Shown piece after piece: positions 10,291 to 55,395 of a DNA stretch of 64,000 bases. Positions within the stretch are counted from its first letter, which is position 1; every line of letters starts with the position of its first letter. Under the pieces are notes generated by a model. That model was given only the letters and a program-made list of their open reading frames with translations. It was not told where the DNA came from and did no database searches. Source of the stretch: Candidatus Woesearchaeota archaeon (lineage in GTDB: Archaea > Nanobdellota > Nanobdellia > Woesearchaeales > GW2011-AR9). Both the position numbers and the translations under genes were made by a program. Where the stretch lies: positions 2,693 to 66,692 of the forward strand of contig JAGVZN010000025.1 in NCBI GenBank assembly GCA_018302605.1, given 5' to 3'.

Positions 10291-11793
10291 TTACCCCTTC
10301 ACATTGCCGATTGGCTTCAACGCCACGACCGGCCGGGTAATCCCCGCTTGATCTAAAGTATCGACAACAACGTCAATGTCTTTATACGCTTCTCCTGCTT
10401 CTTCGGCCAAACCTTTCATCGTTACGGCATGAACATAGATTCCCCGTTGTTCCATATCGTGCTGTAATTTTTCGCCTTTGATCGTACGCATCGCCTGCGC
10501 TCGGCTCATCGTCCTTCCAGCGCCATGGGCCGTAGAGGCAAAAGTCGTATCGGCGCTGTCCGTCCCTAAGAGAAGATATGATCCAGTTTCCATTGACCCG
10601 CCAAGGATGATCGGCTGGCCAATTTTTTGATATTCTGCCGGTAGATCTTTTGCCCGGGCTGGGCCAAAAGCGCGTGTTGCTCCTTTGCGATGGACGAGCA
10701 ATGTTTTTTCTTTTCCGTCAATGACATATTTTTCTAACTTGGCAATATTGTGAGCGACATCATATACAAGGTTCATTTCCATCTCTTCTGCCGTCCGGCC
10801 CAAAACCTTGCTGAATACTTCACGGATGCGGTGCGTGATGACTTGCCTGTTGGCAAACGCCATATTCGCCGCACAGGCCATCGCTTTAAAATAATCTTGT
10901 CCTTCCGGCGAATAAAATGGCGCACAGGCCAATTCTTTGTCGCGGATTTCAATGCCATATTGAGGCATGACATCTAAAAAGAGCCGTAGATAATCTGTAC
11001 CGACCTGATGGCCCATGCCTCTGCTGCCGCAATGGACCATCACGACAATCTGTCCCGGCTTGCTAATTCCCATCACTTTAGCTGCTTCTTTGTCAAAAAT
11101 ATTCTCTTCTTTCACGACTTGGATTTCTAGATAGTGATTACCGCTTCCTAAAGTTCCCAACTGATCAAAGCCGCGCTTGATCGCCCGATCTGTTACTTTG
11201 CTGGGATCCGCCCAGGTGATTTTCCCGTGATCTTCGATATGTTCGATATCGCGCGGCGTGGCCAAGCCTTTCTTCAGACACCATTGTGCACCGTCACGCA
11301 TGACTTCTTGGAATTCTTCTTTAGAAATCTTGATAAAGCCTTTACAGCCGACGCCTGCCGGGACAGCTTTGTATAATTCATCAACTAACTGCTTGATCTT
11401 TGGCTGAACTTGATCGATAGTCAGATTTGTCGTCATCAGGCGCATACCGCAATTGATATCAAAACCGATGCCGCCGGGCGAGATGATGCCTCCGGCATCG
11501 ACATCAAACGCGGCAACTCCACCGATCGGAAAACCATAACCCCAGTGGCCGTCAGGCATACAATAGGCATAGCCAATAATGCCCGGTAGTGTGGCTACAT
11601 TGGTCACTTGTTCAAAAACACCCGCATCCATGCTCTTGATCAATTCTTCGTTGGCAATAATTCGTGCGGGAACGCGCATCCCTTTCTTGTACGATATTGG
11701 CAATTCCCAAGTCGTATCATTGATCTTCTTTAATTCTGGCGGAGGGCCGGCGGGTTTTTGGTCATGTTCCATAGTCTGGTTGTTCTTTGGCAT
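10291..11793 (-). CDS. rtcB: RNA-splicing ligase RtcB (tRNA exon ligase)
   Basis: Full-length match to the RtcB pattern (GFDINCG, HCGSRGMGHQ, HGAGR). The start may be the second ATG at 11772, given the TATA box at 11797-11806. Confidence 0.9.
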   Translation of the reverse strand: MPKNNQTMEHDQKPAGPPPELKKINDTTWELPISYKKGMRVPARIIANEELIKSMDAGVFEQVTNVATLPGIIGYAYCMPDGHWGYGFPIGGVAAFDVDAGGIISPGGIGFDINCGMRLMTTNLTIDQVQPKIKQLVDELYKAVPAGVGCKGFIKISKEEFQEVMRDGAQWCLKKGLATPRDIEHIEDHGKITWADPSKVTDRAIKRGFDQLGTLGSGNHYLEIQVVKEENIFDKEAAKVMGISKPGQIVVMVHCGSRGMGHQVGTDYLRLFLDVMPQYGIEIRDKELACAPFYSPEGQDYFKAMACAANMAFANRQVITHRIREVFSKVLGRTAEEMEMNLVYDVAHNIAKLEKYVIDGKEKTLLVHRKGATRAFGPARAKDLPAEYQKIGQPIILGGSMETGSYLLLGTDSADTTFASTAHGAGRTMSRAQAMRTIKGEKLQHDMEQRGIYVHAVTMKGLAEEAGEAYKDIDVVVDTLDQAGITRPVVALKPIGNVKG

Positions 11794-23952: not shown

Positions 23953-24040
23953 TCAGTATCTGATTTATTGAGGTTTTTTCGATAGGGTCTTTTCTTGCGA
24001 AAGATTTAAGTATTTTGTTCTTCGAAATCTGCTCCATTAT

Positions 24041-24194
24041 ACGGCTGTGGTCAAGTGGTACGCGCTAAGGTTTCTGCGGAAACCCGCTGACCTTGCCCGC
24101 GCAAGATGACACGAGCTTCCCACGAAAATATTTTCGGAATAAGCTTGTAGTCCGGGTTCGATAGATATGTAATCCGAATGTCCCGGCAGCCGTA
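24041..24194 (+). tRNA. tRNA-Gly(CCC) interrupted three times (D-loop, 37/38, T-loop)
   Basis: Hand-folded. Acceptor ACGGCTG/CAGCCGT with C2:G71, G3:C70 and A73. D stem GTCA/TGAC is separated by a 46-nt insert (24061-24106). Anticodon stem CGAGC/GCTTG with loop TTCCCA, a 19-nt intron (24123-24141) and A38. T stem CCGGG/CCCGG has an 18-nt insert (24162-24179). A TATA box lies about 28 nt upstream. Confidence 0.55.
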
Positions 24195-24198
24195 TTTT

Positions 24199-24546
24199 TT
24201 ATATTAACCCTAAGCTGACCTTTAATGCCTCATTTACTTTCTCTACTGTTTCTTCATCTAATCGTCCTATTCTTTTGATGAGCCTTTCTTTATCAACAGC
24301 TCTAATTTGATTTAGAAGTACTTTTGAAGTCTTTTCTATTTCTGCGTTCTCTTTCGTGATCAAAACCTCGATTGGAAATACTTTTTCCGTATGCTGGGAG
24401 GTGATTGGCGCAATGATGGTCATCGGGCTATATTTGTTTCCGATATCGTTTTGGATAATAATTGCAGGTCGCAATTTTTTGATTTCGTGTCCAATAGTAG
24501 GATCAAGACTTACCGTCCAAATATCTCCTCTCTTTATCTCTTTCAT
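24199..24546 (-). CDS. mazF: MazF/PemK-family endoribonuclease toxin
   Basis: IKRGDIWTVSLDPTIGHEIKKLRPAIIIQND and QIRAVDKERL motifs. Confidence 0.85.
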   Translation of the reverse strand: MKEIKRGDIWTVSLDPTIGHEIKKLRPAIIIQNDIGNKYSPMTIIAPITSQHTEKVFPIEVLITKENAEIEKTSKVLLNQIRAVDKERLIKRIGRLDEETVEKVNEALKVSLGLI

Positions 24547-24765
24547 TTAGTCCCAGCTAGGTGAAGCACTTTCCCACTCTTTGTTCAGCTCTTTGTCTTC
24601 TGTTGCTTTTACTTTATATGCGGTAACTAGCTCTCTTACAAGGTTCTTGTGTTTAACTTCAGAGACAACCCTCTTAATAACTTCATCATAGCTCTCATCA
24701 TCAGTTTTAATTTCATCTAGGACATTTTTTGTACTTTTATGAATTTTAACTGTTGTCGTTTCCAT
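24547..24765 (-). CDS. putative antitoxin (COG1753-like, VapB/MazE functional analogue)
   Basis: A small gene abutting mazF (its stop at 24547 is adjacent to the mazF start at 24546). The KIHKSTKNVLDEIK..ESYDEVIKRV pattern is typical of archaeal antitoxins. Confidence 0.6.
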   Translation of the reverse strand: METTTVKIHKSTKNVLDEIKTDDESYDEVIKRVVSEVKHKNLVRELVTAYKVKATEDKELNKEWESASPSWD

Positions 24766-24850
24766 GGTATACCCAAAGTATACTGCTTATATAAATTTTT
24801 GGTTTTAATTCCCATATCTTTATTAATTACACTTTTCTTTCAGATACTAT

Positions 24851-25046
24851 GGGCGCGTAGTTCAGTGGTACTTCGCTGGAATTCCAATGGTTTGCCGGAA
24901 GCACAACAGAATGCACCGTTCGCAACGGTGAGATCTCGGGTTCAATCAGATGTCACGTCATCTGAAAGACGAAGCGACTTCGCAGATTTGCTCAGTCGCG
25001 AATAATTTAGAGAGGTCGTGAATCTTTGAAAATCCCGACGCGTCCA
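24851..25046 (+). tRNA. tRNA-Ala(CGC) with a D-loop insert and an 86-nt T-loop intron
   Basis: Acceptor GGGCGCG/CGCGTCC with the G3:U70 Ala identity pair. D stem GTTC/GAAT is split by about 38 nt (24871-24908). The anticodon arm CACCG-TTCGCAA-CGGTG is intact. T stem TCGGG/CCCGA has the loop TTCAA[24946-25031]AT. Confidence 0.75.
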
Positions 25047-25175
25047 TGTTTTTCACATAGAATAAGCACTTAATAGCAAATCTCGTAAATTATGGAACTT
25101 GTCGAGATCTGCTAGTATAGTAAAGTGCCCATCTCAAAGTTCCATTATTTTTGTACTTTACTATAACAACCAGAT

Positions 25176-27354: not shown

Positions 27355-28029
27355 ATGAGACCACAACAAGAGTATTGGGACAAAGTTTGGCAAGAAAGAG
27401 ATTGGTGTATTGCCAGCAACTTTGGTTACGGTTTGCTTGATGATTCGGATCCAGAATTTCTTGTGGGTAAGGACGTCCTTGATGTTGGTTGTGGTAATTC
27501 TGAGTATTCATCGATTCCGGATAACACAAAAATGTTTATCGGCGTTGATATTTCTGGAGTTGCACTCCGGAAAATAAAACGGGAGTCTACTCGTGGCGGT
27601 TTGCTTCAAGCGTCAGCACTCGCTCTTCCTTTAGGGGACAACGTTGTCGATTATAGTGTCTGTTTTGAGGCTCTCCCACTTTTTGGTGAACATTGTGGTG
27701 TTGCTTTGGCAGAGATGGCGCGCGTTTCGCGTGAAGGATTGCTTTTTACAGTCTCTCATCCCGATCATAAGTTGGCTCTTGGAAACCATTCCCCTCGGGA
27801 TCTTCCTTTCGGGAAGTTATTTACGGGAACTGCCGTTAGCGTGACCGCGTTTACTGAATCGGAGATCAGTACTCTTGTCACTTCTCTAGGAATGCATTTA
27901 GAGACGCTTGCCATTTATACTTTTAATCAAGTGATGAATTATGGTGTTCCGGTCAGGCAGCAGACGGCCTATGTACATGGTAATGAGAAAGAAGCGATGT
28001 ATGTGAAAGCAGTCCATCCCAAAGTTTAA
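27355..28029 (+). CDS. class I SAM-dependent methyltransferase
   Basis: VLDVGCGNS motif I and the LPLGDNVVD acidic loop. ATG at 27355 lies about 22 nt after TTTTAAAG. Confidence 0.75.
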   Translation: MRPQQEYWDKVWQERDWCIASNFGYGLLDDSDPEFLVGKDVLDVGCGNSEYSSIPDNTKMFIGVDISGVALRKIKRESTRGGLLQASALALPLGDNVVDYSVCFEALPLFGEHCGVALAEMARVSREGLLFTVSHPDHKLALGNHSPRDLPFGKLFTGTAVSVTAFTESEISTLVTSLGMHLETLAIYTFNQVMNYGVPVRQQTAYVHGNEKEAMYVKAVHPKV

Positions 28030-28056
28030 AAAGTAAGTTAAGATTTGTCTTCTTAC

Positions 28057-28167
28057 GCCAGCGTGGCACAATCCGGTACTGCGTCAGCATCTGCATGACG
28101 AATCTCGAATCGAATTGTGAGCGAACTGATCCTTCTGGGATTCCCGGTTCAAATCCGGGCGCTGGCG
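28057..28167 (+). tRNA. class II-like tRNA (Ser-like: 3-bp D stem, long variable arm, G73); anticodon region interrupted and isotype unresolved
   Basis: Acceptor GCCAGCG/CGCTGGC. D arm GCA-CAATCCGGTAC-TGC. Variable arm TCC-TTCT-GGA resembles that of tRNA-Leu at 52631. The T arm CCCGG-TTCAAAT-CCGGG is intact. About 30-36 extra nt lie in the anticodon region that I could not splice unambiguously. A TATA box lies 25 nt upstream. Confidence 0.5.
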
Positions 28168-28244
28168 CTTTCTATTTGCTTTTTCGTTTGTTGTTAGCCC
28201 GGATTTGAACGGGGTCACGAACGGAGCGAAGCGGAGTGACTCGA

Positions 28245-28301
28245 CCCGGTTCAAACAGATGTTCACGTTACGGTGAGTCTAAGAAAATCCGGGCGCTGGT
28301 G
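28245..28301 (+). other. orphan duplicate of the preceding tRNA 3' end (T arm plus acceptor strand), carrying a T-loop intron
   Basis: CCCGG-TTCAA[ACAGATGTTCACG...AAGAAA]AT-CCGGG-CGCTGGT-G. No matching 5' acceptor strand is nearby. An inverted T-arm-like piece lies at 28196-28214. Confidence 0.5.
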
Positions 28302-28309
28302 CTTAACGT

Positions 28310-28490
28310 ATGGGGCCCTGTTGAATACCCTCGAATACTTGGAGAGGTTGAATTTTAGTGCAACGTTCGGCGGAGCCGAAAAAATCAAAGTAAATTTGGA
28401 GTCCGTCCATTAGGCGAACAAAGTGAGCAATTCAGAACAATGGTCAAAGGAACAATTTTATTTAGTAGTTCGTCGTAAGGGGAGGGGGTG
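28310..28490. repeat. left arm of a long imperfect inverted repeat bracketing the AIPR gene
   Basis: Four colinear blocks (ATGGGGCCCTGTTGA, TAAATTTGGAGTCC, GGAACAATTTTA, GGAGGGGGTG) recur as reverse complements at 30271-30390. Confidence 0.55.
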
Positions 28491-28495
28491 TTAGT

Positions 28496-30208
28496 TTAGT
28501 TCTCAAATAAATTTTCTATTTCTCTTTTTAGATATGCAGGAACACTCTCAGATACAACTTTGTATGTATCTTTATGTTTAAAGAAATCTCTTTGTCCTGA
28601 GTCAACATCTACAAATTTAGATTTTTCATACTTCTTGTATATGATGTCAAATAATTGTTTTACTGGAGATTCGTTAAATTCAAATGATTTACTATTCAAT
28701 TTTTTAAAGAGTTCATTTAGTTTAAGATTATTATTCAAATCACTGCAATGGTCATAAATTACTCTTAATACATGGAAAGAAGCTAATTTGTGAAATCTCT
28801 TTCTTTTTTCTCCGCGATAGTTTTTACCTATCCTCGAAATATAATCCCATATAATGTAAGGTATTAAATAATCTAATGGTGTTTTTTTGTCTTTAAAAAC
28901 ATCACTAAAATGGCTTGAAAATAGGTCATCCTCATGTGCGTGTGAGGTGTGGGGAAGTTTAATTATCGCCAGATTACACTTAATCAAATCTATATTTTTT
29001 ACACATTTCAAAGCATTTATTCTTGAAGATTTTGCTCTTTCTTCCCTAAATTGTCCCTCTTTTCTTTCAAAATAATAACCTAATGTTTCTAAATGTCTTT
29101 GTAATCTGACTTGGAGAGGGTGATTTGACTTTAACATTCTTTCATCAACGGGAGTTTGTCTGTTGTTTGCTTCGATTATACCATCAATTAATTCTTGATT
29201 GATTAAACTGTCTCCAATTTCAACAATCTTAGCAAACAAACAAGAATCACTAGGTCTATTTTCTCCTATTGTGCTAATAGTTTGACAACCATTTATTATT
29301 TGTGGATTCTTTAAGATTATTTTTTTGTCTTCTTTTAACAAAGTAACTTTTTCTGATAAAATAGTTATTCCATTGTTGAAATACCAGAAATTTTGAGGCT
29401 GTTCTGCCAGAGTGTCTTTCATAGCTTTATTAGGTTTCTTCGATTCACTATAAAATATTCTTACATTTCTTGAAAATAACTTTTCTTGTATTTGTTTAGC
29501 TGGCGGCAAGGCCAAGCGGTGTATCCACAGAGACTTTGTTCCTAGCTAGGTGCGGAAATCTTCTGGTTCACCGCGAGAGGCAGATTCACTTGAGATATTT
29601 ATCAAATAGGCATTAGGATTTTTTGGTCCCTCCATAAGTTCCAAATACGAAATTTCAACATCTCCTAATTCAGGGGTATGCCCATGCTTCCATTCTTCAT
29701 ATTTTCGTTCGATTTCTTTTGCGGAGATTATTTCTACGCCCTGACATTTATTGTCATAAATTGAGTAGTTTGGATTAGATTTATTTGTGGTAATAAAGTA
29801 CAACTTTACTTTATATCCGTCCTCTTTTATCAATCTTATAGCTTTGTCTAATTTTTCTTTTAAACTCGCATGGATATACGCTCTTAATTCGTAATAATCA
29901 AATGTTCCAGTTAGATACTCATAGACTTTATTTAGTTTGTTCAGTTCATCTTTGTTAAATGGGGATTCTCCAATCTCTCTAGAAAATTTAGATTGAATTA
30001 TTTTTATTGTTTTTATGTTGTGATCTATAATCACAGCATCACTTCCAGCATCTTTCCCTCTGTCTGTAATTACTTCAGTTATTTCAGAATCAGCTAAATT
30101 TTCTGTATCTTTGATATACCAAAAAATGAATGCTCTAAAATCTTTTATCTTAAAACGATTACTTATCTCATCTATCTCTTGTAAAAATTGAGTTTTCCAG
30201 TTAGCCAT
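28496..30208 (-). pseudogene. AIPR-family abortive-infection protein, interrupted in frame by a repeat element carrying a TAG stop
   Basis: ORFs 29546-30208 and 28496-29515 are in the same frame and separated by one TAG. The C-terminal part has AIPR hallmarks (LFSRNVRIFY, FWYFNNGITI). The gene is strongly AT-rich. Confidence 0.7.
29488..29585 (+). mobile_element. family C element, truncated copy (about 96 nt) inside the AIPR coding sequence
   Basis: Matches the first ~96 nt of the 9824-9979 element (read on its minus strand), beginning GTATTTGTTTAGCTGGCGGCAAGGCCAAG. Confidence 0.6.
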
Positions 30209-34438: not shown

Positions 34439-35731
34439 TTACAGTTGTTTCTTGACAAGATCGATACACATTCCCGCAGCAACAGTCGCACCGGAATCGC
34501 GGATAGCGAAGCGGGACATCTGAGGGATATCCGTGTTCTTTTCGATGACAACTGCCTGCATCGGCTTCAATTTGACGATCGCCGCATCACCGTTACGCAG
34601 GACTTCTTTGTTTTCCGTTACTTCCTGACCCGTTGTCGGATTGAGCTTCTTGATGATTTGTTCAAAGCGGCAGGCAACCTGTGAAGTGTGGATGTGGAAG
34701 ACCGGCGTATAACCGACGGTAACAACACTCGGATGACTCATGATCACAACTTGAGCAGTGAACTCTGTCGCAACGCTTGGTACATTATCGGCTGGGCCAA
34801 GAACGTCTCCACGGGCGATATCTTTCTTACCGATACCACGCACGTTGAAACCGATGTTATCCCCTGGTTCAGCTTGGTTGACTTGCTCGTGGTGCATTTC
34901 AATTGTCTTGACTTCACCAGAAACACCTTTGCCTTCACGTCCGGGTACGACAACAACTTTGTCACCGACTTTCATAATGCCCGTTTCAACACGGCCGACG
35001 GGAACAACACCAATACCGGTGATGTTATAGACATCCTGAATCGGCAGGCGCAGAGGCAGATTAGTTGGTTTTTGCGGCGTATCAAATTTATTGATCGCTT
35101 CTAAAAGAGTATCGCCAGTCCACCACGGCATTTTCGCAGATTTTTTGGTGATATTTTCACCAGGGAAAGAAGCGATCGGGATGAAACGCACCAGATCAAC
35201 TTTCCATCCTGCCTGAGTGGCGTGTTTTTTCACTTCTTCGACTACTGCTTTATAGCGGGCTTCGGAGAAGTCAACACCGGAAATATCCATCTTGTTAACA
35301 GCGACCATCAACTGGCCGACACCAAAGATTTTGGATAATTTCAGATGTTCAATAGTTTGAGCATTTACTCCATCGTTAGCGGCAACGACAAGAACAGCGC
35401 AATCGGCTTGTGATGCACCGGTGATCATGTTCTTGATGAAATCCCTGTGGCCGGGAGCATCGATGATCGTAAAGTAATATTTATCTGTATCAAAGCGTTT
35501 GTGGGCAAGATCGATGGTAACTCCCCGCTCCTGCTCTTCTTTGAGATTATCCATGACGAAAGCAAATTCGAAGCCTTTCTTACCAAGCTGTTCTGCTTTC
35601 TCTTTCAATTTGCGCATCGCCTGTTCGTCGACGTTTCCCGTGTCAAATAGTAAACGTCCTACGGTCGTGGACTTACCGTGGTCTACGTGACCGATGAATA
35701 CCAAGTTAATGTGTTCTTTTGTTTTTGCCAT
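34439..35731 (-). CDS. tuf: translation elongation factor aEF-1alpha
   Basis: [17 protein letters not shown] and NKMD GTPase motifs. Full length at 430 aa. Confidence 0.95.
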
Positions 35732-49428: not shown

Positions 49429-49815
49429 TCATTCCACCAGCAGCACTTTCTTCCCTTGGCGGATGGTCAGATAAGGCTTCTTCAGATGCTTCTTGAGTTC
49501 CTTGTCCTGAGTCAAGACCAGCCGGCCCTGATGTGAATGCCCAACTAATTCATCATCGACAAAATCGGTGGAAGGGATCACCTGTACTTTTTTGATCTCC
49601 AATAATTTGAGGGCAATCGCCGCCGCAATTTTATATTTCCCGCGCTGTTCCAATTGAATTCTCTTTAATTCATCAATAGTCCCACTTAATACGGCCAGCT
49701 TGTAGGGAAAAAGACAGGATTTCTCTATCTCTAAGAATAGGTCTAATTTCTGTTCTCCTACCGCCATGACCGCGTTAGTGTCCAGGATGATCGTTTTTGT
49801 TCTTGTTGTTTTCAT
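49429..49815 (-). CDS. PIN-domain protein, Fcf1/Utp24-like
   Basis: ILDTNAV acidic motif and C-terminal LTQDKELKKHLKK. Confidence 0.65.
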   Translation of the reverse strand: MKTTRTKTIILDTNAVMAVGEQKLDLFLEIEKSCLFPYKLAVLSGTIDELKRIQLEQRGKYKIAAAIALKLLEIKKVQVIPSTDFVDDELVGHSHQGRLVLTQDKELKKHLKKPYLTIRQGKKVLLVE

Positions 49816-50898: not shown

Positions 50899-51864
50899 AT
50901 GGAATACCGCAAATTAATTTCTTTCGGAAAAAATAGTTTTGTCATTTCTTTGCCTAAAAGTTGGGTGCGCCAGAATAATCTCCAAAAAGGCGTTTTGATC
51001 TATGTGGAAGAACAAGAGAATAATCTTCTCTTAAGTTTGGGGAGTAAACAAGAGACTGTAGAAAAAGTAAAGGAGATCCCCGTAGACGGAAAGAGTGTGC
51101 GCCGCTTAAAACGCGAGATCATCTCTGCCTACATTAAAGATTACAAGACGATTGTTCTCTTTGGAGAAGAATTAAAAGATAAAGCGGTAGATATCCAGGA
51201 TACGATTCAGAATCTGATGGCATTGGAGGTGATGGAGCAGACTTCTCGTAGATTGGTTGCACGGGATTTTCTGGACATGAGTACCATTTCCATCATCAAT
51301 CTTCTCCGCAAGGTCGATGTCATCATTCGGGCGATGATGGAAGATTGTGAAGAGATGTTTGCCAAAGATGATTATGAAAGTATCCTTCATCGCGATAGTG
51401 ATATTAACCGTCTGGCGTTCCTGATCTTCCGGGCAGTGGATTTCGGCCTGAACAATTCGGCATTTATCTATAAAAAGCAAAACCTGACCAGTCAGAAATT
51501 GCTGACACACTGGTGGACGGTGTATCATCTGGAAGCAATCGGCGACGATGTCAAGCGCATCGCCCGCTATATGCGGATGACTCATCTCGAGCCAAAGCAG
51601 CGTGACTGCTTCTTGAAATTATTAGCGACGGCGAAAGAGACCTATTTGCGTGTGCTGAAAGGCCTCTATGCTGAAGATGTCGAATTGGTCCATGCCGTTT
51701 TGGATATGAAAGAGAAGCTGATTGATGATTGTGAAACTTTCTACCAAGCCAACAAGAAAGTGGAAAACGCCGGCCCGCTGGTCGATCATCTCAAGTCGAT
51801 CATCACCGAGATCTATAGCTTAGGCAGGGTTATTTATCAGTCGGATATTAAAGAAAAAGCGTAA
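50899..51864 (+). CDS. AbrB/SpoVT-domain plus PhoU-domain regulator
   Basis: N-terminal FGKNSFVISLPKSWVRQNNL swapped-hairpin motif. Two PhoU-like helical repeats (EAIGDDVKRIARY). Confidence 0.7.
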   Translation: MEYRKLISFGKNSFVISLPKSWVRQNNLQKGVLIYVEEQENNLLLSLGSKQETVEKVKEIPVDGKSVRRLKREIISAYIKDYKTIVLFGEELKDKAVDIQDTIQNLMALEVMEQTSRRLVARDFLDMSTISIINLLRKVDVIIRAMMEDCEEMFAKDDYESILHRDSDINRLAFLIFRAVDFGLNNSAFIYKKQNLTSQKLLTHWWTVYHLEAIGDDVKRIARYMRMTHLEPKQRDCFLKLLATAKETYLRVLKGLYAEDVELVHAVLDMKEKLIDDCETFYQANKKVENAGPLVDHLKSIITEIYSLGRVIYQSDIKEKA

Positions 51865-52630: not shown

Positions 52631-52855
52631 GCAGGGGTAGCAAAGCCTGGTCAAATGCGCAGGACTTAAGCCCCATAACGGAACACCAATCAGCATGATT
52701 GGCTTCATCGCGAAGATATCCTGTTCCTTAGTGGATTCGGGAGTTCAAATAGATGTCACGTCACCTGAAAGACGAAGCGACAATCGCTGATCTCAATCAC
52801 GATGTCGCAGGAATTCAAAAGAGGGCGTGTATCTTTGAAAGTCTCCTCCCCTGCA
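52631..52855 (+). tRNA. tRNA-Leu(UAA) with a canonical 37/38 intron (47 nt) and a 92-nt T-loop intron
   Basis: Acceptor GCAGGGG/CCCCTGC plus A73. 3-bp D stem GCA/TGC. Anticodon stem CAGGA/TCCTG with loop CTTAAG[52671-52717]A. Long variable arm. T stem GGGAG/CTCCT with TTCAA[52749-52840]GT. A TATA box lies about 27 nt upstream. Confidence 0.75.
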
Positions 52856-52861
52856 CTTATC

Positions 52862-52879
52862 GCCCCCGTGGCTCAGTGG
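52862..52879 (+). other. orphan copy of the first 18 nt of tRNA-Thr, fused to intron-like sequence
   Basis: GCCCCCGTGGCTCAGTGG is identical to 53005-53022. It is followed by CAGATGTCACGTCACCT, which is the 5' end of the T-loop intron family. Confidence 0.5.
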
Positions 52880-53004
52880 CAGATGTCACGTCACCTAAAA
52901 TGTGAAGAAAATCACATTTTTGTGCAAAAATAGGTTTAGAGTTCCTATTTTTTGCATCTGAAAGACGAGGTGACCTGCGCTGCGCTTAGTCACCAGAAAT
53001 TATT

Positions 53005-53135
53005 GCCCCCGTGGCTCAGTGGTTGAAGAAATTCCACGAAAGAGCGTGTCCTTGGTATGCGAAAACAAACAGGACAAGGTCGCGAGTTCAATTGCTGATG
53101 TCCAAAACATCATCCTGAAAATCTCGCCGGGGGCT
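53005..53135 (+). tRNA. tRNA-Thr(GGU) with three short inserts (D-loop, a 13-nt 37/38 intron, a 29-nt T-loop intron)
   Basis: Acceptor GCCCCCG/CGGGGGC. D stem GCTC/GAGC is separated by about 24 nt. Anticodon stem TGTCC/GGACA with loop TTGGTA[53058-53070]A. T stem GCGAG/CTCGC with TTCAA[53092-53120]AT. Confidence 0.7.
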
Positions 53136-53157
53136 TATTTTTTCTCCAGAACCAAAC

Positions 53158-55395
53158 CTATTTACATTTCCCTTGTTCACAAGCCGTATACTCAACACCA
53201 CAATCCGTAACACCGGCCTCGATTTTTTCATTGGTATCGGGATCACATTGATACTGATAAAGAACGTTTCCTTCACAGATATCAGGATATGGTACGTTAT
53301 TGAAATCGAAGACCATGCCCGCAGCTGTCGGCTCATTAGCCGGATCAGTGTCAATACAGGCTTTGACACAGGCAAAAGTCTTGCTCTGCGGATCTGCCTG
53401 ATCGGAGAATATGTTACAGGTCTCTCCCCCAGCGCAATAATAAAATGAGGAAACGGGCACAGTTCCCAGACAATTAAAATCTACAATTCCTTTCCCGGGG
53501 CCGAGAGAGAAACAGTAATCGCTCTTAACATACTGGTTGCCATGATGATCTATTCCATCAACTTTACCTTTCTGCGGAAAATTTTTCCCGCCATCCGAAT
53601 CTTTACACGTTGGCTGATACGGCGAAGGGATACATTGCAGTGTCGTCTTTGCCGCTCCTTCGATAACTGTCACCTCTCCAACACAGATCTCATTGATCTT
53701 ACACCAAGAATAGGAGATGATGGGGAATCCTCCGTTACTACATATCCAATCGTGAATCGCATCGCCACTACTGTTGTGTGTGCACCCATCATTCTCATTG
53801 AATTCCCCTCCATCTTTATACATTCCGGCAACATACCCTTTGACCGGATAATTCATCGTTCCATCAGAATCAAAACAACTCGGCATAAATCCCGGCACGC
53901 AGGCTAACGTCGGCTCGCCATCGATCAGCTCTTCGAGGCAAATCTCATCAGCCAGGCACGGCTCGGTGATTGATTTCACTTTATTCCCCTCACAAGTATA
54001 GTCAACGATGAACTCACTTTCATTAGAATTTGAGCATTGATCATTTTTGGTCGTAATTGAACCATTTAGTTCGAGTAAGAGAACTGAACCTTTTACACTC
54101 ATGTTTCCTTTGCCATCGGTATCGTGACACTGACTGCAGGCACCATTAACGCAGGACATGCCATACTTGCAGTTGGTGACATCGGTATGCCATGTTCCGT
54201 CTGCACTACAGATGACGTGAAGAACTTTGTCTACTTCGCTTTCCAAGCAGAAGCCAATATGCCAATCGCTATCATAACTATACAGTGTTGCGAGAGGATA
54301 TTTCCCCTGTGGATCTGGTTCACTGCAGAAATCTTCGTCCACGGGAACACAGCTGTCCTTAACCCCATCGCCATCAAGATCATAAGGATATTCCGTCTGG
54401 ATACCAACGAGTAGATTTTCCGGACAAAGATCGAGGATACAACTCTCCGCAAAGCCATCATTGTCGTTATCATACGGAAATTCCTCCTGCACACCGGCCA
54501 ATGCTGGACAGAAATCAGGAGCGCAGCTATCAGCTGTCCCATCACCATTGGTATCATACAAAAAATCGGTCTGGAGGCCTTCCACAAAAGGACAAATATC
54601 TACCGCCGCACAGCTTTCACCCCATCCATCGCCATCGTTATCGTAAGGGAAACTAGTTTGCAGGCCGGGCAGATCCAGACAGACATCCTCCGGCTGGCAG
54701 TAGGCTTCTCCCACGGAATTGAGCGCGCAGGTTGATTTGGGAAGATAATCCTGGCATTTCATCCCTTTGCCATTCGGCAGACCATCTGAACAATAAGATT
54801 CGATCAGGACCATTGGCCCTTTACACACATCCGGGAACGATTCCATAATCTCCGGGTCGGCAGAAAAGCTGAATGTTGTCGTCCCACCCCAGCCTAATGA
54901 GGGATCACTGTTGGGAATGGTCTCCTCAAAGAAATCGCCAAACACGCTTTTCTGGAAGAACACCTTTGTGTCATCAGAATCTTTACAGACAACCTCTTCT
55001 AAGGTGATGCACTTCCCAGCCAGATAGATCGGCTTTTCTGGCGGGCACCATTCCTGATGGTGGTCATTGCCAACTTTTACCCAGCGCTCATCTTCGGGTT
55101 CTTGATTTGTCTCCGGAGAGATTTCCGCATCTGGAACAACGGCATCGGGCTGTCCTGAACCAGCAGTATCTGGATGAGGGAAGGGCAAGACAAAAGAAAG
55201 TCCATCGGGCATTGTGTGTCTGTAGGTAAAAATATCCGGAAAAGATGACGTTGCTGAAACCTCTTCTGACCCCTCTCGTGTTTCCTGGAGCGCATCTGTC
55301 AGAGAATTTTGCAATGGAGTTTCTGCCGTTCCGCCACAGGCGAGAATGATCCCGCTTAAGCCGCTGAGAACATAACTCTTGAACCGCCGTCGCAT
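53158..55395 (-). CDS. large secreted Cys-rich surface protein with four TSP3-like Ca-binding repeats and repeated Cys modules
   Basis: Signal peptide or lipobox (ILACGG). Four repeats of the form YD.DGDG...SC. Four modules start with C.D(S/T)DG..N...KG. Confidence 0.7.
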   Translation of the reverse strand: MRRRFKSYVLSGLSGIILACGGTAETPLQNSLTDALQETREGSEEVSATSSFPDIFTYRHTMPDGLSFVLPFPHPDTAGSGQPDAVVPDAEISPETNQEPEDERWVKVGNDHHQEWCPPEKPIYLAGKCITLEEVVCKDSDDTKVFFQKSVFGDFFEETIPNSDPSLGWGGTTTFSFSADPEIMESFPDVCKGPMVLIESYCSDGLPNGKGMKCQDYLPKSTCALNSVGEAYCQPEDVCLDLPGLQTSFPYDNDGDGWGESCAAVDICPFVEGLQTDFLYDTNGDGTADSCAPDFCPALAGVQEEFPYDNDNDGFAESCILDLCPENLLVGIQTEYPYDLDGDGVKDSCVPVDEDFCSEPDPQGKYPLATLYSYDSDWHIGFCLESEVDKVLHVICSADGTWHTDVTNCKYGMSCVNGACSQCHDTDGKGNMSVKGSVLLLELNGSITTKNDQCSNSNESEFIVDYTCEGNKVKSITEPCLADEICLEELIDGEPTLACVPGFMPSCFDSDGTMNYPVKGYVAGMYKDGGEFNENDGCTHNSSGDAIHDWICSNGGFPIISYSWCKINEICVGEVTVIEGAAKTTLQCIPSPYQPTCKDSDGGKNFPQKGKVDGIDHHGNQYVKSDYCFSLGPGKGIVDFNCLGTVPVSSFYYCAGGETCNIFSDQADPQSKTFACVKACIDTDPANEPTAAGMVFDFNNVPYPDICEGNVLYQYQCDPDTNEKIEAGVTDCGVEYTACEQGKCK

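Follow-up and report, generated by a model that had tools for sequence, protein, structure and literature searches.

Five tRNA genes lie in the 64-kb stretch of DNA analysed here (64,000 nt; hereafter the window), and in all likelihood they are working genes of the Woesearchaeota/Nanoarchaeota (DPANN) lineage interrupted by bulge-helix-bulge (BHB) introns. On the evidence of the sequence, the 12 inserts that they carry, two or three per gene, are probably protein-spliced archaeal (BHB) introns in real, functional tRNA genes. This is a known kind of archaeal intron in a well-documented new case; the mechanism is not new, and all four intron positions were known before from Crenarchaeota and Nanoarchaeota. 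The window has a G+C content of 44%, and its source is a DPANN archaeon of the Woesearchaeota/Nanoarchaeota group. The EF1A that it encodes (34439-35731, − strand) is at most 87% identical to proteins of metagenome-assembled genomes (MAGs) labelled Woesearchaeota, Nanoarchaeota and "uncultured Methanosarcinales," the last label being apparently wrong. The public runs that hold the locus are all groundwater or soil metagenomes, no RNA run being among them, one assembly record carries a Rifle-type sample name, and the scaffold ends just past the right end of the window.

Applied to the raw window, neither ARAGORN nor Rfam (at the gathering score and at E ≤ 10) reported any tRNA, and the exon models were therefore made by hand. 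A custom scan, which required a T stem followed by TTCRA, allowed an insert before the T stem returned and demanded a matching 7-bp acceptor stem, recovered exactly five credible tRNA genes, all on the (+) strand, plus one fragment. The five genes are as follows.

24041-24194, + strand: tRNA-Gly(CCC), 71 nt when mature, three introns; ARAGORN on the spliced form; X1-X3 contigs with 0 differences.
24851-25046, + strand: tRNA-Ala(CGC) with G3:U70, two introns; ARAGORN on the spliced form.
28057-28167, + strand: tRNA-Ser(CGA), two introns, T loop intact (CCCGG TTCAAAT CCGGG); ARAGORN on the spliced form.
52631-52855, + strand: tRNA-Leu(UAA), 86 nt when mature, two introns; ARAGORN on the spliced form.
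53005-53135, + strand: tRNA-Thr(GGU), three introns; ARAGORN on the spliced form.

Splicing in silico followed the archaeal BHB rule, with each cut set two nt downstream of a strand of the 4-bp central helix. All five spliced products were accepted by ARAGORN as complete cloverleaves with sensible anticodons, and the identity elements came out correct (G3:U70 in Ala; discriminator A in Gly, Ala and Leu, G in Ser and U in Thr). The tRNA genes are preceded by TATA-like boxes and, except for Leu, followed by T-runs; since Leu has no terminator at its 3′ end, the Leu and Thr genes are probably co-transcribed. The exons of each gene are collinear and contiguous within 111-225 nt, which is not the arrangement of split or permuted tRNA genes. 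Group I and group II introns have a ribozyme core of at least ~200 nt that covariance models can recognise, whereas the inserts here are 13-92 nt long and Rfam stayed blank for such introns even at E ≤ 10.

An earlier note on this DNA had already described interrupted Gly, Ala, Leu and Thr genes, and the scan, the splicing and ARAGORN confirm all four on the (+) strand. Its lengths for the T-loop inserts (18, 86, 92 and 29 nt) and for the 13-nt Thr insert at 37/38 proved exact, its D-loop inserts in Gly, Ala and Thr are upheld, and the 37/38 inserts that it placed in Gly, Leu and Thr are found at 19, 47 and 13 nt. Its tally of at least 11 inserts in these four genes was too high, however, as we count 10 (12 with Ser as the fifth gene), and the T-loop occupancy that it called uniform extends to four of the five genes. 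Individually, the introns are as follows.

24060-24105, + strand: Gly D-loop intron at 20/21, 46 nt; relaxed BHB, AGTG/CGCA with the A14 mismatch; read from the sequence.
24123-24141, + strand: Gly intron at 37/38, 19 nt; strict hBHBh′ (h = 6, H = TTCC/GGAA, h′ = 4); BHB scan.
24163-24180, + strand: Gly T-loop intron at 59/60, 18 nt; strict hBHBh′, H = TTCG/CGAA; BHB scan and minimum-free-energy fold.
24870-24907, + strand: Ala D-loop intron at 20/21, 38 nt; mature D arm GTTC AGTGGTA GAAT; sequence and ARAGORN.
24947-25032, + strand: Ala T-loop intron at 59/60, 86 nt, H = TTCA/TGAA; starts with the repeat-family module CAGATGTCACGTCATCTGAAAGACG; covariance-model match of 43.8 bits.
28088-28102, + strand: Ser intron at 30/31, 15 nt; H = CGTC/GACG, perfect, with no outer helix.
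28110-28123, + strand: Ser intron at 37/38, 14 nt; H = CTCG/TGAG.
52671-52717, + strand: Leu intron at 37/38, 47 nt; relaxed BHB, 3 of 4 central pairs; an X1 contig skips exactly these bases.
52750-52841, + strand: Leu T-loop intron at 59/60, 92 nt, H = TTCA/TGAA; family module at its start; BHB, fold and covariance model.
53024-53040, + strand: Thr D-loop intron at 20/21, 17 nt.
53058-53070, + strand: Thr intron at 37/38, 13 nt; relaxed, 3 of 4 central pairs.
53093-53121, + strand: Thr T-loop intron at 59/60, 29 nt, H = TTCA/TGAA; BHB in the minimum-free-energy fold.

Read from the sequence, the introns at 20/21, 37/38 and 59/60 share one layout, in which the arm stem, four loop nt and two further nt precede the intron and one nt and the returning arm stem follow it, with the 7-nt loop split 6|1. 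In the T-loop introns, the T stem serves as the outer helix, positions 54-57 pair with an intron 4-mer located 3 nt before the returning T stem, and both cuts fall inside 3-nt bulges. The resulting central helix is a perfect Watson-Crick 4 bp in all four window genes concerned and co-varies between TTCG/CGAA (Gly) and TTCA/TGAA (Ala, Leu and Thr). Four exact complements of this kind have a chance probability of about (1/256)^4, which excludes chance. At minimum free energy, the T arms of Gly and Thr fold into the textbook hBHBh′, and in those of Ala and Leu the central helix is one pair longer. The D-loop introns of Gly, Ala and Thr all follow AGTGGT, and the D loop left behind is the classic AGTGGTA; in the central helix, AGTG stands against CGCA, CACA or CACG, and the A14 mismatch is constant, making these motifs relaxed.

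Classified in this way, Gly 37/38, Gly 59/60 and Thr 59/60 are strict BHB motifs, Ala and Leu 59/60 are near-strict, and the D-loop introns, Ser 30/31 and Leu and Thr 37/38 are relaxed. The strict BHB scan missed all of this relaxed group as well as the Thr T-loop intron, and the introns that it missed were settled by eye with the same cutting rule and then checked by folding. In a MAFFT alignment of the family introns, RNAalifold recovered the T stem and a local hairpin but not the BHB; this alignment is not a structural one, and the invariance of the module is built into it by the search pattern. The earlier note had deduced a splicing endonuclease of relaxed specificity. The junctions in the T loop, however, are near the canonical hBHBh′ and by themselves do not require such an enzyme.

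In this layout, the arm's own stem provides the outer helix, four loop nt and four nt near the intron 3′ end form the 4-bp central helix, and each predicted cut falls after the second nt of a 3-nt bulge. In the proposed pathway, EndA would cut both bulges and RtcB would join the exons, both being presumed to act on these junctions. The exon contributes the near-universal UUCR of the T loop to the central helix at 59/60, and an intron ending in YGAA-NN could therefore be spliced from any tRNA. With one site per arm, this near-universal half-helix would offer a simple reason why the 59/60 site is hit repeatedly and why one intron family occupies the T loops of different tRNAs. The ligase is encoded in the window:

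10291-11793, − strand: RtcB RNA ligase (3′-phosphate/5′-OH); Pfam PF01139, E = 1.5e-171, full length.

RtcB is the joining enzyme of archaeal tRNA splicing and a universal archaeal housekeeping gene. The gene is thus present where the earlier note put it, but the nearness to the tRNA genes that the note stressed is uninformative, since a universal gene located 12-40 kb away says nothing about them. For EndA, no Pfam family matched among the 63 window ORFs, and tblastn with the Methanocaldococcus jannaschii protein, a query first confirmed to be identical to PDB 1A79, found no match in the window or in any of the fetched loci.

Related organisms in the same samples provide intronless alleles exactly at three of the predicted junctions. 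An X1 contig, from a related organism, lacks the Leu 37/38 intron, skipping precisely the 47 nt assigned to it. Relatives' contigs run from ...GTTCAAAT straight into CTCCT..., i.e., they have a Leu T loop without an intron (TTCAAAT|CTCCT). In X1-X3, a relative of the Gly gene reads AGTGGTA|TGAC, with the D-loop intron absent and with 37/38 and T-loop introns that differ from those of the window. The variants seen in Ser across the community lie within the predicted introns. Intron gain and loss is frequent in this lineage, and alleles with and without introns in related genomes of the same groundwater samples make a natural system for studying both.

We found that 59/60 introns are common among the relatives of this archaeon. 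Of the tRNA genes that the scan recognised in related Woesearchaeal loci totalling ~420 kb, roughly half carry a 59/60 insert (14-89 nt), and the tRNA genes downstream of EF1A in related genomes, which are probably one orthologous gene, split about evenly between presence and absence of a T-loop intron. Among the 18 plausible T-loop-intron genes of the window and related loci, 12 have 4/4 central pairs and 6 have 3/4; in comparison, three AT-rich spurious hits have 1/4. A pattern scan of 185,579 species genomes, made with one T-stem variant and a short 59/60 intron, gave at least 120 loci. Among the matches listed, the acceptor stem fits in 62 cases, and ~57 can plausibly be taken as tRNA genes. 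At least 55 other species-level genomes, mostly Woesearchaeota/Nanoarchaeota, have 59/60 introns that share the 3′ signature seen here; the matches listed also include a few Aenigmatarchaeota and Hadarchaeota, one Helarchaeota record and one Omnitrophota record, the last of which we suspect to be mislabelled. The 58 listed matches that have no matching acceptor stem are nearly all bacterial records with no tRNA context and look like chance. The earlier note had called T-loop introns known but rare in archaea, which is right for Archaea as a whole and wrong for this lineage.

The non-canonical BHB positions 20/21, 30/31 and 59/60 are catalogued in reviews (PMC4090602), and up to three introns per tRNA gene are described for Crenarchaeota (PMC4090602, PMC4033280). 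The closest likeness is to Thermoproteales (Pyrobaculum, Thermofilum and Caldivirga), whose genes also have at most three BHB introns at 20/21, 30/31, 37/38 and 59/60 (PMC4090602), with a mix of strict and relaxed motifs that standard finders miss. In contrast, the host here is a mesophilic groundwater DPANN archaeon rather than a hyperthermophilic crenarchaeote, and occupancy is centred on three sites of the same layout, one per arm; the Thermoproteales endonuclease is an (αβ)2 enzyme with an L1 loop, whereas the window is without EndA. In ARMAN-2, the endonuclease is of the ε2 type (PMC3239211). Within DPANN, the superphylum of this archaeon, a markedly increased disruption of tRNA genes was reported for lineages with an L3-loop EndA (Kaneta et al. 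2018; PMC5829648). That study, with one Woesearchaeota genome in its data set, pointed from incomplete predicted tRNA sets to undiscovered disrupted genes; it gives per-genome counts and describes neither a shared layout of loop sites nor an intron family nor 5′ copies upstream of the genes. A eukaryotic three-intron tRNA is also similar in having one intron in each of three arms and BHB-dependent removal, but it belongs to an unrelated lineage, and the introns here differ from it in length, the eukaryotic ones being shorter.

One repeat family recurs among these introns. The T-loop introns of Ala and Leu open with its module CAGATGTCACGYCAYCTGRRAGRCG, as does an element lying upstream of Thr; introns of the family start CAGAUGUCACGYCAYCUGRRAGRCG. 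Window copies of the 24-nt module (AGATGTCACGYCAYCTGRRAGRCG) lie at 24947-24970, 52751-52774 and, in two parts, 52880-52896 and 52955-52975, and others occur in loci L081-L108; exact-pattern scans found it in 5 MAG loci and 23 metagenome loci. The module comprises two overlapping helices (AGAUG/CAUCU and CGYC/GRCG) with co-variation in both, and in the T-loop copies its TGTCACG pairs with a CGTGACA-like stretch near the intron 3′ end, closing an inner helix. Many copies open 59/60 introns in Ser, Ala and other tRNAs of other genomes, while others lie away from any tRNA, 12-14 nt past TATA-like boxes, and some of these are tandem or nested. The same module is thus found in non-homologous tRNAs and at different positions (Ala and Leu T loops; a D-loop-type element upstream of Thr), as is characteristic of a transposed intron. 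A covariance model of the module found no copy in 80 EF1A-neighbourhood loci of other Woesearchaeota, so the family is limited to some lineages even though 59/60 introns are widespread. Several identities were considered for the module (C/D-box sRNA, K-turn, hammerhead or another small ribozyme, IS200/IS605 end) and set aside, as on reading it fitted no consensus and Rfam was blank.

Similar introns in different tRNAs of Thermoproteales have been described as "intron transposition" (Fujishima et al. 2010, as summarised in PMC4033280 and PMC4090602). The near-identical introns in the Ala and Leu T loops and the D-loop-type copy upstream of Thr resemble that case. The module here differs in also lying off tRNAs (~12-14 nt past TATA-like boxes, in tandem and nested) and in having one copy with a nested insertion and a 5-bp target duplication. 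The family element upstream of Thr and the fragments in the window are the following.

52862-52879, + strand: direct copy of Thr nt 1-18 (GCCCCCGTGGCTCAGTGG); X2 and X4 contigs span it with 0 differences.
52880-53004, + strand: family element upstream of Thr, between the two Thr 5′ copies; module split into 52880-52896 and 52955-52975; covariance model and sequence.
52897-52954: nested insertion in the module of that element, 58 nt, AT-rich, two hairpins, flanked by a 5-bp duplication (CACCT/CATCT); covariance model.
28245-28301, + strand: Ser-type tRNA 3′ fragment with T arm, decayed family intron at 59/60 and acceptor 3′ strand.

The 3′ end of the Thr-upstream element is a D-loop-type 3′ splice signal, CACC AG|A. 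DNA transposons leave short target duplications such as 5 bp; the duplication around the 58-nt insertion points to insertion at the DNA level, and the insert looks like a miniature DNA transposon. At contig ends of MAG274 (L082 3770-3982 and L081 6553-6908), a tRNA-like 5′ fragment (GGGCCTGTGCTCTTGCGC) precedes several module copies inserted into each other, a repeat that breaks the assembly. Just downstream of the tRNA-Ser gene, an inverted copy of its T arm lies at 28197-28214 (− strand). This copy and the decayed 3′ half beside it suggest a past rearrangement or integration at tRNA-Ser. An AIPR (abortive-infection-type) gene at 28496-29515 follows the Ser 3′ fragment. A 51-nt segment at 28341-28391 (GGAGAGGTTGAATTTTAGTGCAACGTTCGGCGGAGCCGAAAAAATCAAAGT) has a depth of 500-1,700× in four metagenomes, compared with ~10-15× for the genome, indicating that it is common to many community members or highly repeated; it matched nothing in the fetched loci or in Rfam.

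Could the interrupted loci instead be decaying pseudogenes hit by small mobile DNA elements, with functional, uninterrupted copies elsewhere in the genome? We consider this improbable. The intron family does occur outside tRNA genes and in nested or broken copies, the window does hold dead fragments (the Ser 3′ piece and the Thr 5′ copy), and a nested insertion with a 5-bp target duplication is what DNA transposons produce. However, all five exon sets are flawless after splicing, every insert has a complement specific to its arm in the exact BHB register, and T-loop introns at the same site interrupt similar tRNA genes of many other genomes. Real decay looks different, as in the Ser fragment, where CAGATGTTCACGTTACGG has only 3/4 central pairs, and no uninterrupted tRNA gene was found within the 64 kb. 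Assembly error, e.g., chimeric joins at repeats, is an explanation of inserts and duplications to which we give virtually no weight. It is true that tRNA exons are conserved across the community and that contigs break there: at the 5′ exon of Leu, depth reaches ~2,800× and contigs part ways exactly at 37/38, so many community members share this exon and differ in their introns. Yet the contigs of four separate runs show 0 differences over 24000-25100 and 52721-53200, stretches that contain the T-loop introns and the duplicated Thr 5′ end. This rules out an assembly artefact, and a separate ENA assembly has the same Thr locus (L109).

Where exactly the T-loop inserts sit is a narrower question. 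The earlier note placed them at 58/59, directly after TTCRA; such a placement, or removal by a route other than BHB splicing, appears very improbable. Exon sequence alone leaves some ambiguity of register, and in Leu a T on both sides of the cut allows two placements with the same mature sequence. Cuts at 58/59, however, would give bulges that lack the symmetric 3-nt form of a BHB, and the mature loops would read TTCAAGT or TTCGAGT, whereas intronless relatives have TTCAAAT, the Leu relative continuing directly into CTCCT. A cut 2 nt after each central-helix strand fits four of four genes and, at 59/60, leaves the mature T loops TTCGATT, TTCAATT and TTCAAAT. Functional genes with BHB introns, those of the T loop at 59/60, are accordingly the reading that we prefer.

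The Thr 5′ copy has counterparts elsewhere. An exact copy of the first 13-20 nt of the tRNA, located 51-143 nt upstream, accompanies 9 of ~50 genes in the window and related loci, about one in five (window 52862-53022, L007, L016, L023, L044, L083, L084, L093 and L103), and controls that searched the wrong sides came back empty. In four Ser genes, probably orthologous, sequence changes in the gene are matched in the upstream copy. Between species, compensatory changes are seen in the spacer hairpin, and a segment of the spacer pairs with the upstream copy. A TATA box lies ~24 nt upstream of the copy and is not placed for the gene, whereas tRNA-Ser genes without a copy have TTTATAAA-N24-26 directly before +1. 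That TTTATAAA box stands very regularly 24-26 nt before the mature +1 of Woesearchaeota tRNA-Ser genes (L012, L014, L043, L088 and others; window 28020-28056), a spacing that would imply leaderless or nearly leaderless pre-tRNAs. Such pre-tRNAs have reportedly been described in Nanoarchaeum equitans. We rejected the upstream copy as a true exon 1 joined by EndA: two identical copies cut at equivalent sites have no way of pairing into the complementary central helix, which makes such splicing geometrically impossible.

Two readings of the copies are plausible from sequence comparison. Copy and hairpin may form a functional, hitherto undescribed 5′ leader structure that RNase P would remove, or the copies may be a trace of RNA-templated gene replacement. 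A bolder proposal, which we rate as doubtful, is that the intron family and the upstream exon copies are direct traces of archaeal tRNA intron movement. A structured repeat (24-nt module plus hairpin) would then spread among tRNA loops and non-tRNA sites, and cDNA of a tRNA or pre-tRNA would have replaced the downstream part of a gene. If so, duplications would be expected to begin at the transcript start, and the better-resolved ones do begin at the predicted start; in L023 the duplication takes in a further 16 nt on the upstream side, reaching approximately the predicted transcription start. Both the upstream copies and the repeat family could bear on the mechanism of tRNA intron transposition.

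That ARAGORN and Rfam see no tRNA in 64 kb holding five has practical weight, because tRNA counts feed MAG quality standards and claims of "missing" tRNAs. The tRNAs of DPANN archaea would be under-called without BHB-aware tools and hand curation, as has been warned already (PMC5829648).

Several toxin-antitoxin-like or defence-like genes share the window with the tRNA genes. Between Gly and Ala lie a MazF/PemK toxin gene and a small upstream ORF, probably its antitoxin (24199-24546 and 24547-24770, both − strand). Beyond these and the AIPR gene, the window encodes a PIN_9 protein (49429-49815) and a MazE-like plus PhoU domain protein (50899-51864).
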